64,000 nt of DNA. Origin: Octopus sinensis. Taxonomy: Eukaryota. A model generated the notes under the pieces. The model was not told where the DNA came from. It made no database searches and saw only the letters and a program-made list of their open reading frames with translations. The stretch is from NCBI RefSeq assembly GCF_006345805.1, contig NC_043004.1:101742001-101806000 (forward strand). Reading direction: 5' to 3'. Numbering within the stretch: position 1 is the stretch's first letter; every line of letters starts with the position of its first letter. Below, piece after piece: positions 19,739-47,722 of this stretch. Made by a program: the position numbers and the translations under genes.

Positions 19739-21693
19739 TGGTTGTCTACTCCTTATGCAGAATCTCACCAGCTCATGTACCTACCTCTTAGATCCATCAT
19801 GGCGTCTGATGTGGCTTTTTAAACCGGACAATGTGTTGAAAAGACACCCACATATATTGCATATTTGATTTGGACCAGCAAGTGCTGCAATTAAGTTCTG
19901 ATCTTTGTGGATCATAAAATGTTTTTCGAGGACTCCATTAGATTTGCAGACATTATGGCAAATATGGCATTGAAAGGTGTGCACAGACATTTAGGCAGAA
20001 TAGTTGGTGGAGGTTGGTTTCTTATAGGTCCGCAAATGAGATTTGAACCCAGCTAAAGGAAGGCATGGTCTGTCACAAACTATGCACATATAAAGGTCAT
20101 TGTGATTCACCGGTGAACTGGTGTGGTCGTCTCTGATGAGACTCGTCTTCCTGCAGCTCGTCTCATTGACATGTTGCAATATAGGATGAAGCACCGGACC
20201 TCGGCCTTCGGCATCTAGATTATTGCCAGCTGGAAACGGCCATCGACAAGAAAAGAACTCTACATTTCTATGGAGTATTAATTATATAAAGGGTTAGGTT
20301 GAAAACAAGATGATCTAATTTCGGCTGAAAAGTGTTTTATACGGGGTCTGGAGGGTCAGTGATGACCTAAGGTTAAAGAACAGCAGTGTATGAAGGAGGT
20401 GATGTTAATGAAAGTTGTCAGTCATCTTAACTATGTGATCGAGTGCTCAGCATTTATCAAATTAATGTTAGATCTTCATTAGCTGACATTTTAGAAAGGT
20501 TGTAAGAAGAGAAAGGAGGTGCAAGCAAATACATGGAACTTATAATGAAAATATCGAATAGGTAAAGAAACAAAATACATACCGCAATAGCATGTACTTG
20601 CTCGTCAAGTTGTGGTGTTTCAAACGATTTACACCAATAAGTAGTTTCTGAGTTTGGAATTCGAGTCTGAAATCAATTTTAAAAACAGTTATAATTGCAA
20701 TAAATGGTTATAATAAAATAATGATGAAAACCTCATTAAAGGGTTTTTAGTTGAAGAAACCGACCCCAGAACTTATTCTTTGTAAGCTTAGTAATTATTA
20801 TATCGTTCTCTTTTGCCGACACAGCTAGGTTACGGAGACGCAAACACACCAACATCGTCTGTCAAGCAATGGTGATGGGGCAACCACAGACACAAAGACA
20901 AACGCATAAATACAAACACACACATATATATACGAAAGGCTTCTTTCAGTATCCGTCAAATAGATCCACTCACAAAAGCTTTTGTCGACCCGAGGCTGTA
21001 GTAGAAGACACTTGTCTAATGTACCACACAGAGGGACTGAACCCGGAACCATGTGGTTGAGAAGTAAGCTTCTTACCATACAGCTTCAACTGTGCCTATA
21101 TATATATATATATATATATATATAGGCACAGTTGAAGCTGTGTGGTGAAAAACGTGCTTTCGAACCACATGGTTCCGGGTTTAGCCCCAAAGCGGGGAAA
21201 CTTGGGCAAGTGTCTTCTACTACAGCGTCGGGCTGACCAAAGCCTTGTGGGTCGATCTGAAAGAAGCTTGTCCTATATATATATATATATAGGAGTGGCT
21301 GTGTGGTAAGTAGCTTGCTAACCAACCACATGGTTCCGGGTTCAGTCCCACTGCGTGGCATCTTGGGCAAGTGTCTTCTGCTATAGCTCCGGGCCGACCA
21401 ATGCCTTGTGAGTGGATTTGGTAGACGGAAACTGAAAGAAGTCTGTCGTATATATGTATATATATAAGTGTGTGTGTATATGTTTGTGTGTCTGTGTTTG
21501 TCCCCCTAGCATTGCTTGACAACCGATGCTGGTGTGTTTACGTCCCCGTCACTTAGCGGTTCGGCAAAAGAGACCGATAGAATAAGTACTGGGCTTACAA
21601 AGAATAAGTCCCGGGGTCGATTTGTTCGACTAAAGGCGGTGCTCCAGCATGGCCGCAGTCAAATGACTGAAACAAGTAAAAGAGTAAAAGAGA

Positions 21694-21760
<67 letters not shown>

Positions 21761-21961: not shown

Positions 21962-24900
21962 TAATAGTGTACATTTAAACACAAGAGAAAACTGCCTTCA
22001 CAGGCAGTTTTTACACGCTAGAAGAAGTAGTCAAAACGACCAAAACCACATTTAAGAGCAATCTTCAAAAGGAATGAGAAATAAAAACTTTTACCTTGTT
22101 ATTTTATTCCGGTTAGACCTAGGTTTCAAAATCATTTTGGCAAATAAAATAATTTACTAGGACAAAATTTCTCATCAGTGACCGCGCCATATCACTAACA
22201 TATAATTAAGAGACGAAGAATACGTGTTTCATCGTTATACATTATAATTTTTCAAATTCACCGCGCAAGCGCAGTTTCAATCGGCATGCTAGGCCACTGG
22301 TAGTGAAATTTAAAAACAAAACAAAAAAAAACTCACTAAAGAACATAAAGAACATTCCCCACCTTCGAAACGAGGGACAACAGATGGAAGAAATGTTCTT
22401 TATATTTCTGTTCCGTTTCTCTATTTGTTTCTTTTGTTGTTTGAAAAAAAGTTCGTTTTCTGTGTTTTTGTTTTTTATGTTCTCGTTTCTCATTTTGATG
22501 ACGTTATTTTGATGTTCTGTACCCATATATGTTTGTATATGTACATATATATGTAGGTATGTACATATATGTATGTATATATGCATATGTTATTCATATT
22601 ATTATACGATCGAATGCCACGCATCCATTTTCAAGTAAGTTTTATATATATATATATACGTATTTTCGGATCCGACAGGGAGAGACGTGTATCGTCTTTG
22701 CTCTGTTTAAAAAGCAGAAAGTGTGCATAAATCGGTGAAATAATCTACTGAAAGTCACAAATTCAACTCATAAAGCCCACTACAACACTTCGGCTACAAA
22801 TATATTAATCAAAAACGTAATATACTTTGCCTGAAGCCAAACAGTAAAAATTTTTTCTTTTGACCGAAAACGCACATGGCGAAAAAAAATCCACTGTAGA
22901 AGGAAAAAGAAACATCTCCTGGAAAATAACCACGAAAAAAACCCACGAAAAATCCAGACCACATCGTTGGATTAAGTATCCCTTTCATCTTCTATTTCAT
23001 ATTTTGTTTATTATCCTATTTTATATAATCTAAGCCCACATCTCCGTTAAAGTCTACGATCGCTTTTTTTTTGTTTGTTTACATTTCAATAACTGTCTCG
23101 AACTTGGCTTCAAAATTAAATAACCCTTTCTTCACACTTTAAAATATATATATATTTTAATATATTTTCACTCATTTTCTTTCTTTTTTTTCCACCTTCC
23201 TTCTCTCCCCGTCTGTGTATATGTGTATGTGTGTGCACGTGTATGTATGTGTGTGTGCGTGTATGTATATATGTATGCGTATATATGCATGGACGTGAAC
23301 TTTCACGAACTTTATATAGATAACTAATCTTTCCCCTCTTTCTTACCTCTTTCAGATACTCCATCTTCTAATTAGCCTTAAGATTAAATAACGTTTAATA
23401 CTGTTTATCGTTAATAATTTTTCAGATACTCTATCTTCTAATTAGCCTAAGAATAAACAACGTTTATTACCCACACTTTAACATCTAATTTTTTACCCAC
23501 ACTCTAATATCTTTCTAATTAGCCTTTTTACCCACATTTTAAATATTTGTTAATATATTTTCAGATACTCTATCCTCTAATTAGCCTTAAGATTAAATAA
23601 CGTTTCACCCACACTTTAATATATTTTTGGATGCTCTACCTTCTAATTAGCCTCAAGATTAAATAACGATTATTACCCACACTTTAATATAATTGTAATA
23701 TTGTTAACATATTTTCAGATACTCTATCCTCTAATTAGCCTTAAGATTAAATAACGTTTTACCCACACTTTAACTTTAACTTTTTCACCCACACTTTAAT
23801 ATATTTTTGGATGCTCTACCTTCTAATTAGCCTCAAGATTAAATAACGATTATTAACCACACTTTAATATAATTGTAATATTGTTAACATATTTTCAGAT
23901 ACTCTATCCTCTAATTAGCCTTAAGATTAATAACGTTTTTACCCACACTTTAACTTTTTCACCCACACTTAATATATTTTTGAATACTCTACCTCTAATT
24001 AGCCCCAAGATTAAATAACGATTATTACCCACACTTTAATATAATTGTAATATTGTTAACATATTTTCAGATACTCTATCTCCTAATTAGCCTAAGATTA
24101 AATAACGTTTTTACCCACAAACTTTAATATTGTTAATATTAATAATACTCTATCCCATAATTAGCCTTAAGATTAAATATCTTCTTGTCTTCTCTCGAAC
24201 ATAGTTAAATAGATAAACAAATAGACAGATCATCCAGCATGTCCAGAGCATGGAGACCTGACGAGCTGGATTTATTCGTACAAGCATGGGAGTGCGCCGG
24301 CGGAGATAGCCCTAGCGAGGTGATTGCGGCTGCGCTGAAGAGCAGAGGCTACAAGAGGACAGCGGCTCAGATGGAGCGAAAGAGACGGGAATTCGTGCGC
24401 TCATATGCGCTTGTATGGTCGCACATTGGCGCACTTGATGCCATCTTTGAGAACGAGCGAGGCAAAGATGACATGAATGGAGACGATGAAAGAAGTCACC
24501 CCCACCTGGTGGATGCCCGGGAGGAGGTTTTGAATGAGAAACCTGCCCGGGAAGTGAACCCAGGTGCAAGTTCTCCAACCGGCAGCAAAGGCCATGGAGA
24601 CGGAGAACCCGGTGAAGAGGTAGAGGGAGGAGGAAGAACTAAAAGAAGGGCTGGTAGAGCTAAAGGAAAAGCTCAAGCAGGACCAAAGGGTGAAAAAACT
24701 AGGAATAGAAGTGGAACCGCAAAAGATGGAAACGGACAGCGCACACAGGTGTGTAGGTTCTACCTGAGAGGTTCCTGCTGGCATGGAAAGGAAGGTGCAG
24801 GCTGCCGCTTTGCACATCGGGGACCCTGCCACAGAGACACGAGGCAGATGTACAAACCATCAACACAAGGAAAAGGGATGGACCACGCACCATTTGCCCC

Positions 24901-27900
24901 AAAGCGGAGGTACGCAGATGTTGTGCGTGCCAGAAACCACCAACATGATGTTGTCGAAAGGGCAGCTGCTGAGCAACAATCTTTTTTGTGCATGGCACAA
25001 AAGATTGTACAGCAGCTGACCTGGCTTCATCAAACCCAAGCCCGCAGGTGGGACTACCCACTATATACTAGACCACCACCACAGCAAACAGACCCAGGAT
25101 GGACACCACCGGCAACAACGTACACCTCACCTCGATGCTCCTACTGAACATCAGAGGACTGCAAACACTCAGTAACAGGACAAAAATCCCGTTCCTGAGA
25201 GATTTTGTTGCATGCAATCAAGCCTTATGCATAGCACTAACGGAAACGCACCTGAAACCGGATATAGCAGATGCGGAGTTACACATACCACAGTATGCTG
25301 TACTACGGACCGACAGGAAAGAAAGGAGTCATGGAGGTGTTGCTATGTACATCCGTGAGGACCTCACACCCCAGGTCCTCTTATCATACTCAAACTCGGT
25401 GTGTGACACACTAATTGTACATATTAGGCAACTTGATGTAGTTGTGTGTGCTACATACCGCCCTCCAGATGCCCCAAGCCATGTGGGCAAGTTTGAAGAC
25501 TGCCTTATAAAAATAGAGAAGTTCTAACCACATTAGAACAACACATAAGTGTACTTCTTATGGGAGACTTCAATCTGCCAAATGTCAGATGGCCCGAGGG
25601 CCTTTCTCTCCCAGGAATGACAAGATGTGAACGAGGACAGGCGAGGTCCCTCCTGAACCTCATCAACACCCTGTACATGGAGCAGGTAATACTCCAACCA
25701 ACCAGGGTAGGTAACACACTGGATCTCTGCTTCACAAATGACATGGATCTCATCCATAATGTGAAAGTGACACCGACACTACTCTCGGATCACAACATGA
25801 TAGAGCTGACCATGTACGGGCCAAAAGAGAGCACGGACATGCAGCCTACAAGAAACCCCCAGAATCTTTCCAGCTTGAACTACCATAAGGCAAACTGGAA
25901 ACAAATTGAGAAAGAGATCCTCAAACAAAACTGGCCTAAATGTCTCTCCTCGCCAGACATCGACGTGAAACTTCAACAATTCATGTCTGTAATGCAAGCC
26001 ATATGCTACAAATATGTCCCAGAGAGAAAGGCCACTGTACACAAGAACAAAATCCCCAGAGAGAGGAAAATTCTAATGAGGCGGCGTACAAAATTTTCAA
26101 ATCGCCTAAACAAACAGATTGAAAGCAGTGAAAAGTCCCGCCAAAAAATAAAACTGTTGGAAATCGAAAAATGTCTGAAACTCTCCCATGAAAAGGAAAG
26201 AGCAGACAAAGAAGCCTGGGCTATAGACAACATAAAATCTAACCCCAGAGCTTTCTACAGGTATGCCAAAGAAACGGCTACGGTGCACTGTAGAATAGGG
26301 CCACTCCTCGAAAAGGATGGCACACTTACAGGAAAACCAATGAGGGTAAGTGAAATACTGAATGAGCAATTCAAGAGTGTTTTCACTCCACCCCTTGGGC
26401 ATCTCCAAATCACCAATCCAACTGACTTTTTTACCACTGCAGATATAAAATCAGAGGCGGCGACGATAGATTACATCGATATAAAGGAAGACGATGTAAT
26501 CAAGGCTATAGATGAAATGAAAACAGACTCAGCTACTGGCCCCGATGGATTCCCGGCAATCCTCCTAAAAGCATGTAAGAGAGTCCTAGCAAGACCACTG
26601 CAGTTCCTCTTTCAGAGCTTCCTTGCAGCTGGCAAACTTCCAAGAAAACTGAAGGAAGGTAAAATATGCCCCATTCATAAAGGAGGTAGCAGAGCGGAAG
26701 CCAAGAACTATAGACCTATCTCTCTGACCTCACACATCAGCAAGGTCATGGAACGAATAGTCAGAAGGAAGCTGATCACCTTCCTTGAAGAAAATGACTT
26801 GCTGCCCGACACCCAACATGGTTTCCGACCAGGGAGAAGCTGTTTAACTCAGCTCCTACAACACTATGACTGGGTGCTGAAACGGCTGCTCAACCACTCA
26901 AATGTGGAAGTGATATATCTCGACTTTGCAAAGGCCTTTGATAAAGTCGATCATGGAATGATATGTCACAAACTGCGTGATCTCAACATAGTTGGAAAAC
27001 TGGGAGAATGGCTTCATGACTTTCTGAAAGATAGAAGTCAGGTGGTAGTGGCCAATGGGGCCACTTCCATTAACACGCAAATAGTGAGCGGTGTTCCGCA
27101 GGGCACTGTTCTGGGATCACTACTGTTCATAATGGCCCTCTCAGACATGCCCTCAGCCACGCAGAGAGCCACGATCACAAGTTATGCAGATGACACAAAA
27201 GTCTCACAGGCAATACAGAACCCTGAGGACACTAAACACCTGCAATGTGAGCTAGACAAAATATACAAGTGGGCCGAAAAGAAGAGCATGCAGTTCAATG
27301 CTGAAAAGTTTCAAGCTCTATACTATCAGCATGCAAAACTAAATGCAATACCCAATGAATACACTGGACCCGGAGGAATAGCAATCCCAGAGGCACAATC
27401 AGTGCGTGACCTAGGTATTTACATGAGTGATGACGCGACCTTTCGTGTACATGTTGCTAAATTGGCAATGAAATGTAGACGACTGGCCGGATGGATCCTC
27501 AGAACCTTTAGAACAAGAGAACAAGAAACCATGATGGTCCCCTAGAGGACACTTGTCCTAAGCCACGTTGACTACTGCTCTCAGTTATGGTCACCATCCA
27601 GTGTCAACTTGATCACAGAGCTCGAGGCGATCCAACGTAGCTACACGAAGAAGATAGCGTTTATGCAGAATGTAAGCTACTGGGGAAGACTCAGGAAATT
27701 AACATTATATTCCCTGGAGCGTAGGCGGGAAAGATATGCCATAATATACATCTGGAAGATCCTGGAGGGAAGTGTCCTGAACTTTGGCATCGAGTGTTAC
27801 GCAAATGCCAGAACTGGGCGCCACTGCGTGGTGCCTAGGACTCCAAACTTGCCATCAAGATGTAGGACAAGGTTCTGTGATAGCCTGGGCTTCCGAGGCC

Positions 27901-28956
27901 CACAGCTCTTCAATATCCTCCCGAAGAACCTGAGAGACCTGCATGGGGTGGATACAGATGTCTTTAAAATGAAGCTGGATCTCTTCCTGTCAGGTGTCCC
28001 AGATGAACCAACTTCACGGCAGGAGGGGCAGATGAGGGCAGCTGCATCGAACTCTCTCATGCACCAAATAGCAGCTGCTAGAAAGCCTTCATGAAGTGAA
28101 ACCAAGTAGCAACACCAAATGGCGGTGCCCCAGCATGGCCACAGCTCATAAGCTGAAACTGGAAAAATCAAAAATCAATCAATCAAATCAAATATATTGT
28201 TTGTTCCTTCTCGAGCCATGCCTGGCTAATAGGGCTGGTTTCCCGATTTCCTTGGCGTATAGGTTCCCCACCTGAACGGGACACCGGTCCGTCGCAGATG
28301 AGCTGCAAGATGCAGGAGGTAAAGAGTGAGAGAAAGTTGTGGTGAAAGAGTCAGCAGAAGTTCACCATTACCTTCTGTCGGAGCCGCGTGGAGCTTCGGT
28401 GTTAAACTCACCCATGGAGCTTAGATGTCAATTTTACACATCGCCCGGTCAGAGATTCGAACCCACGATCCCTCGACCGCGAGTCCGCTGCTTTAACCAC
28501 TAGGCCATGTGCTTCCACACACACGTGTACATTTAAATACAAGAAGTATTCGTCATAGGATTCCTGACACGCTAGAAGGAACAGCCAAAGTCCACACAAC
28601 TATTAGAGTCCAGAAGATAGATGGCAATTTTTTTACTTTTCATTCCCTTCGACGTTCTATCCCAAATAGTGGTTTGGACTTTGGCTGTTCCTTCTAGCGT
28701 GCCAGGAATCCTATGACGGATACCTCTTATGTGTTTAAATGTACACCGTATTTATATGAATAATATATAGTGTATTGACTAATTTTTTTACACGCTAGGC
28801 CACTGGTAGTAAAAAATTATAAAATCTTTATAACCCTCATATTACGCTAAATTATGTATTTTCAGCGAGGACTCCATAATAATATTCCGGGATTCGAGCT
28901 CACAACCACACGATCGTAAGCTCGACGCTCTAACCACTGAGCCATGCGCCTTCACC

Positions 28957-47401: not shown

Positions 47402-47722
47402 GACTCCGCCGGTTACGACGACGAGGGTCCCAGCTGATACGATCAACGGAACAGCTTGCTCGTGAAATTAACGTGCAAATGGCTGAGCATTCCACAGACA
47501 CGTGTACCCTTAACGTAGTTCTCGGGGATAATCAGCGTGACACAGAGAGTGACAAGGCTGACCCTTTGAAATACAAGTACAACTCATTTTTGCCAGCTGA
47601 GAGGACTGGAGCAACGTGAAATAAAGTGCCTTGCTCAAGGACACAACGCGTCGCCGGGAATCGAACTCACAACCTTACGATCATGAGCCGAATGCCCTAA
47701 CCACTAAGCCACGCGACTTCAC
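47402..47722 (-). mobile_element. SINE family C (tail as A, different body)
   Basis: tRNA head, ccttgagcaaggcacttt core, 3' half matching family A. Confidence 0.85.

Follow-up and report, generated by a model that had tools for sequence, protein, structure and literature searches.

Which of its two proteins tells a LINE where to insert, and can this choice be changed without a change of the endonuclease? The question is raised by a full-length long interspersed nuclear element (LINE) of the CR1 group at about positions 22,664–28,192 (plus strand) of a 64,000-nt stretch of Octopus sinensis DNA, which as a whole is called the window here and to which all coordinates refer. An earlier inspection of this DNA from its letters alone (the sequence-only reading) had noted that open reading frame 1 (ORF1) begins with a Myb/SANT-type, trihelix-like domain, and had supposed that a LINE lineage had captured a DNA-binding module which could serve target choice or autoregulation. 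The families of this genome that carry the domain lie mostly in (TA)n microsatellites and their closest relative lacking it mostly does not, which indicates that the domain likely steers the landing site. The reading to which we give an even chance is that the Myb domain of the ORF1 protein (ORF1p) would anchor the particle on (TA)n DNA, where the endonuclease then cuts and inserts.

Insertion into TA repeats

ORF1s headed by the Myb domain are found in five young families, designated A (to which the window copy belongs), B, C, D and F. Twenty further loci obtained from distant homologs all carried a Myb domain followed by endonuclease and reverse transcriptase (20/20) and belonged to families A, B, C and D, their ORF2 being 57–94% identical to that of family A.

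The flanks of all families were scored by the same rule, namely that (TA)4 occurs in the 60 nt following the 3' anchor, counted over distinct flanks. By this rule 43 of 63 family-A copies lie in TA, together with 4/4 of family B, 7/9 of family C and 22/29 of family F. Family D was tested after the idea had been formed, its only previously known flank being one without TA; 19 of its 25 anchored copies were in TA and so, by eye, were three of five copies missed by the anchor. Of the families without the Myb domain, one with a PHD-type ORF1 (the PHD family) gave 6/37 and the (TTA)n-tailed canonical CR1 gave 1/33. The (TA)4 background amounts to 5.1% in the window, to 5–6% around PHD and CR1 copies and to 19% around A copies. 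Pooled, the Myb families (95/130) differ from the PHD family with p = 8e-10, copies not being independent lineages, and near-identical young copies selected by their 3' DNA alone still differ (Myb 18/30 vs PHD 4/26, p = 0.0009). From family to family the preference ranges from 68 to 100%, short of strict insertion into a single sequence.

At the 5' side, (TA)4 stands no more than 30 nt upstream in 16 of the 17 full-length copies that have a true 5' end (18 pattern matches, 16 of them with TA; one miss was a false match within the ORF2 of another copy). Of the 5'-truncated copies, 5/14 of family A, 0/9 of the PHD family and 1/18 of CR1 have TA at the 5' junction. Since TA is present at 5' junctions as well, it is to be regarded as the target and not as a product of tail slippage. 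In family A the 3' tail is (AATC)n, in most cases with (TA)n behind it, and (TA)n also precedes the 5' ends; no two of the five Myb families have related 3' tails. Within TA arrays the lengths of target-site duplications are not definable. At one locus (L427) a short TA tract holds both a family-D tail and, immediately after it, a family-C 3' end.

Could the TA flanks have arisen only after insertion, by birth of microsatellites from the tails or by a bias in retention? Such an origin would fit the finding that older A copies are in TA more often (29/36) than those of the youngest A subfamily (14/27), and also the TA-rich regions around A and D insertions, where the 19% is a distal background. 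We nevertheless hold it to be very improbable, because it is at odds with the TA at 5' junctions, with the difference that persists between young Myb and PHD copies, and with the (TTA)n-tailed CR1, which is in TA in only one of 33 flanks.

Identity of the N-terminal domain

From sequence comparison and structure prediction we conclude that the N-terminal domain of ORF1p is Myb/SANT-like, with a predicted trihelix fold; the trihelix/MSANTD pattern that had been seen in the first 70 or so residues thus held up in profile, profile–profile and fold comparisons. The Pfam search gave a divided answer. Residues 3–57 of the window ORF1 match Myb_DNA-bind_4 (PF13837) with E = 0.001 and 19.9 bits, scores of 15.9–19.9 bits all staying below the curated cut-off of 27 bits, and a weak match is present in 21 of 27 copies; the CCCH finger is likewise below its cut-off. 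The homologous ORF1s of family F, by contrast, pass the PF13837 cut-off (27.3–38.1 bits, 3/3 tested), and it is by homology to family F that the window domain is assigned. In a search of the genome with PF13837, 37 matches were above the cut-off, and of the 30 that were fetched 25 were family F ORF1s and five were host-gene-like. A profile of the window domain scores all 25 family F ORF1s at 31–53 bits, and the hhalign probability is 97.5 between the window domain and family F and 94.6 between the window domain and the five host-type PF13837 members. A homolog search with the single sequence found none, homologs emerging when the profile was used, and the domain profile met weak unrelated matches only among PDB sequences.

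AlphaFold2, supplied with 31 aligned homologs, predicts helices at residues 7–20, 26–35 and 42–80, with a predicted local distance difference test (pLDDT) of 85–97 over residues 1–70; the three helices with a long third one agree with the trihelix-like domain of the sequence-only reading. Beyond the domain the model shows a disordered linker, acidic and then basic (that reading had named a basic disordered linker), the finger and a helix at 225–272. Foldseek placed GT-1 on top (probability 0.94, E 0.2), with Myb and SANT domains next and RAD among the top rows. VIA-align was headed by LUX, GT-1, ARR1 (Z 7.7) and RAD (7.6), with root-mean-square deviations of 1.9–2.8 over 55–59 residues. Feature matches in the Atlas were of the Myb/MADF type, all below 0.9; the Atlas structure search gave no clear match, and Foldseek with the full-length ORF1 model gave only a noisy result.

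Every Myb-type LINE family has a basic third helix (5–7 K/R vs 1–3 D/E). This bears on the possibility that the domain is a SANT-type binder of proteins or histone tails, which stands in for a PHD finger and either draws the particle to chromatin or opposes a restriction factor of the host, the TA preference being indirect. The Myb domain does occupy the place of the PHD finger, SANT domains are among the fold matches and the domain changes fast (pN, the nonsynonymous difference, is 0.29 vs 0.05 in ORF2). We consider such a role improbable, as the basic third helix is that of DNA-binding Myb domains and DNA-binding domains lead the fold list.

On the internal branches of 36 family-A copies the ratio of nonsynonymous to synonymous differences (pN/pS) was 0.36 in the Myb domain and 0.18 in ORF2, and on terminal branches it was 0.49 in the domain. 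The ratio is below 1, and the difference between internal and terminal branches is not significant, so that the constraint on the domain is moderate. Positive selection on the domain was not seen among the family-A copies. Synonymous divergence on internal branches is 0.81 in the Myb domain and drops to 0.18–0.32 in ORF2, which suggests that 5' parts were exchanged between family-A subfamilies.

Origin of the Myb module

The ORF2 tree contained 19 rows, 8 redundant rows having been omitted, and its labels CR1-like, Jockey-like and RTE-like were read from the sequences and not from curated references. Its topology was (CR1-like, (F, (PHD family, A–D))), with a support of 99/98 for the PHD family together with A–D, and these elements grouped with the CR1-like element of the same genome against the Jockey-like and RTE-like rows at 100/100, the labels being those just described. 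The approximately unbiased (AU) test rejects a single clade of Myb-bearing elements (p = 0.008). What had been described as one young element with this architecture is indeed young, and the architecture belongs to two LINE lineages; in the reverse transcriptase phylogeny both lie in a clade with PHD-type relatives, next to a CR1-like neighbor, without forming one clade of their own. In a tree of 17 rows family F stands with two PHD-type elements (95/96) and A–D with the PHD-family clade (94/91), and two changes of state between Myb and PHD suffice. Since the PHD family is nearer to A–D by its ORF2 than F is, the TA preference follows ORF1 and not ORF2 kinship. A C-terminal motif looks Zenon-like, Zenon and Crack being the candidate subclades. 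Jockey-like reverse transcriptases were also found on unplaced contigs (L177–L206).

The young PHD family was obtained with a PHD-CCCH homolog as query. Its ORF1 consists of a helical domain, a PHD-like finger (Pfam PHD at only E = 0.036), three CCCH fingers and a C-terminal helix, and has 18 database homologs. Its first CCCH finger matches the finger of the window ORF1 with an HH probability of 96.9, from which it follows that the latter was inherited from the PHD-CCCH ORF1 of the clade. The finger that had been seen behind the Myb domain and the linker is present, with a ligand pattern kept across families and Pfam CCCH scores below cut-off, and was not part of the capture. The stretch with the FL motif in PHD-type ORF1s is the counterpart of the C-terminal helix of the window ORF1. 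Between the Myb domain and the helical domain that opens PHD-type ORF1s, a conceivable source of it, hhalign showed no match (probability 0.7). Among 80 metagenome loci, most of them without an ORF1, the Myb profiles had no match, and a whole or partial PHD-CCCH-type ORF1 was present in three, the PHD being confirmed by Pfam in one.

The supposed capture of the module is supported by the related LINEs on both main branches, which have a PHD-type ORF1 instead. As the Myb lineages are apart in the ORF2 trees and each stands beside PHD-type elements, the module was likely gained twice, and from one source. The Myb domains of the two LINE lineages resemble each other much more than they resemble the host-type domains that were tested, so that one capture followed by transfer between LINE lineages appears to be the simplest reading; the alternative would be two captures from one donor family. 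A search for a donor gene among five host-type PF13837 loci found none: one scored 12 bits with the domain profile and four gave no match.

Some members of these families deserve mention. A very young PHD-type family (L111–L121, L237–L266) has near-identical 3' ends and variable peptide repeats, with ORF2 open in L112 and L117 and ORF1 open in L111, L117 and L118. A family F copy with both frames open (L169, G000:C6:1670359-1678859) encodes the Myb domain, Gln/Pro-rich repeats and four CCCH-type fingers, and several family F copies (L217–L228) show a partial duplication of the finger.

A proposed mechanism and its rivals

The ancestral ORF1 would have consisted of the helical domain, the PHD, an array of CCCH fingers and the C-terminal helix, and its front module would have given way to a single Myb module, acquired in one capture and handed on by recombination to the second LINE lineage. 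In the particle, the CCCH finger and the basic linker may hold the element's RNA and the C-terminal helix may oligomerize ORF1p. The basic third helix of the Myb domain would read TA-alternating DNA and dock the particle, upon which an endonuclease of weak AT preference could nick nearby and start target-primed reverse transcription. The element would gain a landing site that is abundant and largely harmless. More broadly, and with somewhat less confidence than an even chance, we propose a portable module: a host-type Myb/SANT domain that was captured into ORF1p, crossed from one CR1-group lineage to a distant second one, recognizes (TA)n directly and may have turned non-specific LINEs, with the SINE carried by them, into microsatellite seekers.

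If this is true, target choice of a LINE can be encoded by a DNA-binding domain of ORF1p and swapped without touching the endonuclease; should ORF1p set the site, insertion could be retargeted via one domain of 70 residues, which is relevant to retrotransposon-based gene insertion. It would also help to explain why LINEs, SINEs and TA arrays accumulate together in octopus genomes, and it addresses two questions of the field, which role ORF1p has besides the packaging of RNA and by what route LINEs with an apurinic/apyrimidinic-type endonuclease (APE) gain a target preference. The genome contains two Myb-type families and one PHD-type family that are young and partly intact, and together they serve as a natural swap experiment whose outcome is easily read.

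Several findings weigh against tethering by ORF1p. There are only two lineage contrasts, the copies not being independent events, and this genome offers no more than one family of the clade that lacks the Myb domain. About one quarter of the Myb-family copies are outside TA, and the youngest A subfamily is in TA less often than the older copies. Internal branches show no stronger constraint on the domain than terminal ones do (p = 0.30). Each fold match is weak by itself and under the significance bar of its tool (Foldseek E 0.2, VIA Z 7.7), and the domain lacks the third-helix Trp and Asn that are present in two host-type domains. The PHD family is itself mildly enriched in TA (16% vs about 6%, p = 0.02). 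Finally, 14 of the 28 copies of a short interspersed nuclear element (SINE) with a family B tail lie in TA, the loci sampled being biased to TA-rich DNA. A SINE-like element of this kind is found in the window at 21632–21700, where it ends in the family B 3' end and a (GTAAAAGA)n tail; family B is likely the LINE partner of this abundant octopus SINE.

The last two findings speak for a mechanism in which ORF2 sets the preference, either by the specificity of its endonuclease or because extruded TA repeats are easily nicked, the Myb match being a coincidence and the domain doing something else. Such an ORF2-only mechanism explains the SINE in TA simply, and for target-specific APE elements such as R1 and Tx1 the endonuclease is the usual explanation. 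It requires, however, that the endonuclease changed twice, each time along with a gain of Myb, or else a single loss in the PHD family. Moreover, the loop before the LDL motif of the endonuclease, which may set its specificity, is by eye equally short in the A, B, F, PHD and CR1 sequences. On balance we regard this mechanism as unlikely, yet as one to be taken seriously.

Of the two functions that had been proposed for the module, target choice agrees with the TA flanks of the Myb families. For autoregulation no evidence emerged. ORF1p might be the element's own transcription factor and bind the tandem repeats of its 5' untranslated region (UTR); the domain has the fold of a transcription factor, the family A UTR has 66/180-nt repeats and the B and D UTRs bear repeats too. 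The A UTR shares no sequence with those of B, C or F, the repeat units differ and are absent from two of three F copies although the domain is conserved, and the TA flanks would be left unexplained. We therefore give this role little credence. In blastn comparisons no 5' UTR motif was common to the Myb families, except for a 5'-terminal stretch shared with D. An AGACGT word stands a few bases inside the 5' terminus in families A and F, the UTRs being otherwise unrelated; it is possibly a promoter element or due to chance.

The element in the window

The features of the window copy are collected in Table 1. The sequence-only reading was right about the state of the element: there is no stop in ORF1, the ORF2 ATG at 25099 gives an overlap of 49 nt in the −1 frame, and ORF2 has two lesions, a 1-nt gap near 25517 (relative to an intact copy) and an in-frame TAG at 27543–27545. 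The young age agrees with 98.7–98.8% identity to the three nearest fetched copies. The C-terminal helix, the 5' UTR of 1.57 kb with its repeats and the (TA)n target are additions to that reading.

Table 1. Parts of the window LINE and of its 5' junction
Feature	Position	Strand	Basis
(TA)n microsatellite at 5' junction, likely target	22643..22658	no strand	sequence; 5' flanks of full-length copies
5' UTR, about 1.57 kb, start approximate	22664..24238	+	5' terminus common to full-length copies
Tandem repeats (66/180 nt) within 5' UTR	23350..24180	+	TRF; copy number varies among family-A copies
ORF1, intact, 302 aa	24239..25147	+	translation without stop; 130/130 scored genomic matches
Myb/SANT-like trihelix domain, aa 3–70	24245..24448	+	profile, profile–profile and fold comparison
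Linker, predicted disordered, acidic then basic	24449..24751	+	pLDDT <50 at aa 86–165
Single CCCH finger, C-x7-C-x8-C-x3-H, aa 172–193	24752..24817	+	homologous to first finger of PHD-type ORF1s
Predicted C-terminal helix, aa 225–272, conserved; candidate oligomerization helix	24911..25054	+	AlphaFold2 model
ORF2, APE endonuclease and reverse transcriptase	25099..28094	+	translation, Pfam
3' UTR and (AATC/AAATC)n tail, then TATAT	28095..28192	+	sequence

In ORF2, Exo_endo_phos_2 and RVT_1 are above the Pfam cut-off, and for the intact copy no further family is listed. The short-tandem-repeat 3' tail and the occurrence of 5'-truncated copies are traits of the CR1 group. The scored genomic matches to ORF1 are 65–100% identical; ORF1 is open in 38 of 40 fetched copies, and both frames are open in one (L054). 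The named protein homologs of the window ORF1 are Octopus proteins. In a predicted lipin protein (P0013) the C-terminal end is a piece of the ORF1 linker, so that P0013 is probably a gene model fused with a LINE copy. Three contig sets of guessed RNA cover ORF1, contigs of a kind that cannot show transcription. ARAGORN called a tRNA-Met-like sequence at 47647–47719 on the minus strand.

Comparison with known systems

Metcalfe and Casane (2014; PMC4120745) distinguish ORF1s of the PHD, RRM, CCHC, Tnp22, esterase and zf/lz types, and none of the words Myb, SANT and CCCH appears in the main text of their survey; in the parts available the PHD-CCCH type is likewise absent. The nearest published note, as far as the accessible text goes, is an HTH_1 ORF1 in an alga (PMC5203782). 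The accessible part of PMC13282606 counts, for O. vulgaris, 13 CR1 families with recent activity and has no notes on domains or targets. Neither a LINE ORF1 with a Myb/SANT or trihelix domain nor a TA preference of octopus CR1s was found in the full-text literature as far as its texts were accessible (including PMC13343379, PMC11203168, PMC10294476, PMC9115989, PMC3520747 and PMC5786205), Repbase and Dfam lying outside that search. The Myb-headed ORF1 is a new type, on two CR1-group lineages and coupled to a microsatellite preference; Repbase or Dfam may already catalogue the families. CR1-group LINEs whose ORF1 is of the PHD type (III/V in the scheme of Khazina and Weichenrieder, which the available text of PMC4120745 follows) are alike in the APE and reverse transcriptase of ORF2, in the short-repeat tail and in a modular ORF1 with an exchanged N-terminal module. 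They differ in that the window element has Myb where they have PHD.

Microsatellites are the targets of Waldo, Kibi/Koshi, Dong and Rex6. Compared with such non-LTR (long terminal repeat) elements, the octopus preference is about 70%, is not strict and tracks ORF1. HERO and Togen, in the available part of Kojima and Jurka (2015; PMC4640811), insert into simple repeats as a safe harbor, like the octopus Myb families; according to the same text most target-specific families belong to the early-branched, the Tx1 or the R1 groups, not to CR1.

The PF13837 proteins (Harbinger accessory proteins, MSANTD and the GT-1 trihelix) share fold and profile with the LINE domain, which differs from them by a shorter link between helices 1 and 2, by replacement of the third-helix W and N and by a C-terminal extension that is common only to the two LINE lineages. 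R2 and NeSL elements use an N-terminal Myb domain in target recognition. There it sits in the single protein that carries restriction-like endonuclease and reverse transcriptase, whereas the octopus Myb domain is of the PF13837 type and sits in the separate ORF1p of an APE-type element. In Dictyostelium, ORF1p of TRE5-A binds host TFIIIB (PMC5911963, available text) and is likewise implicated in the choice of the integration site; the octopus ORF1p, with its predicted DNA-binding fold, would instead read the target directly.

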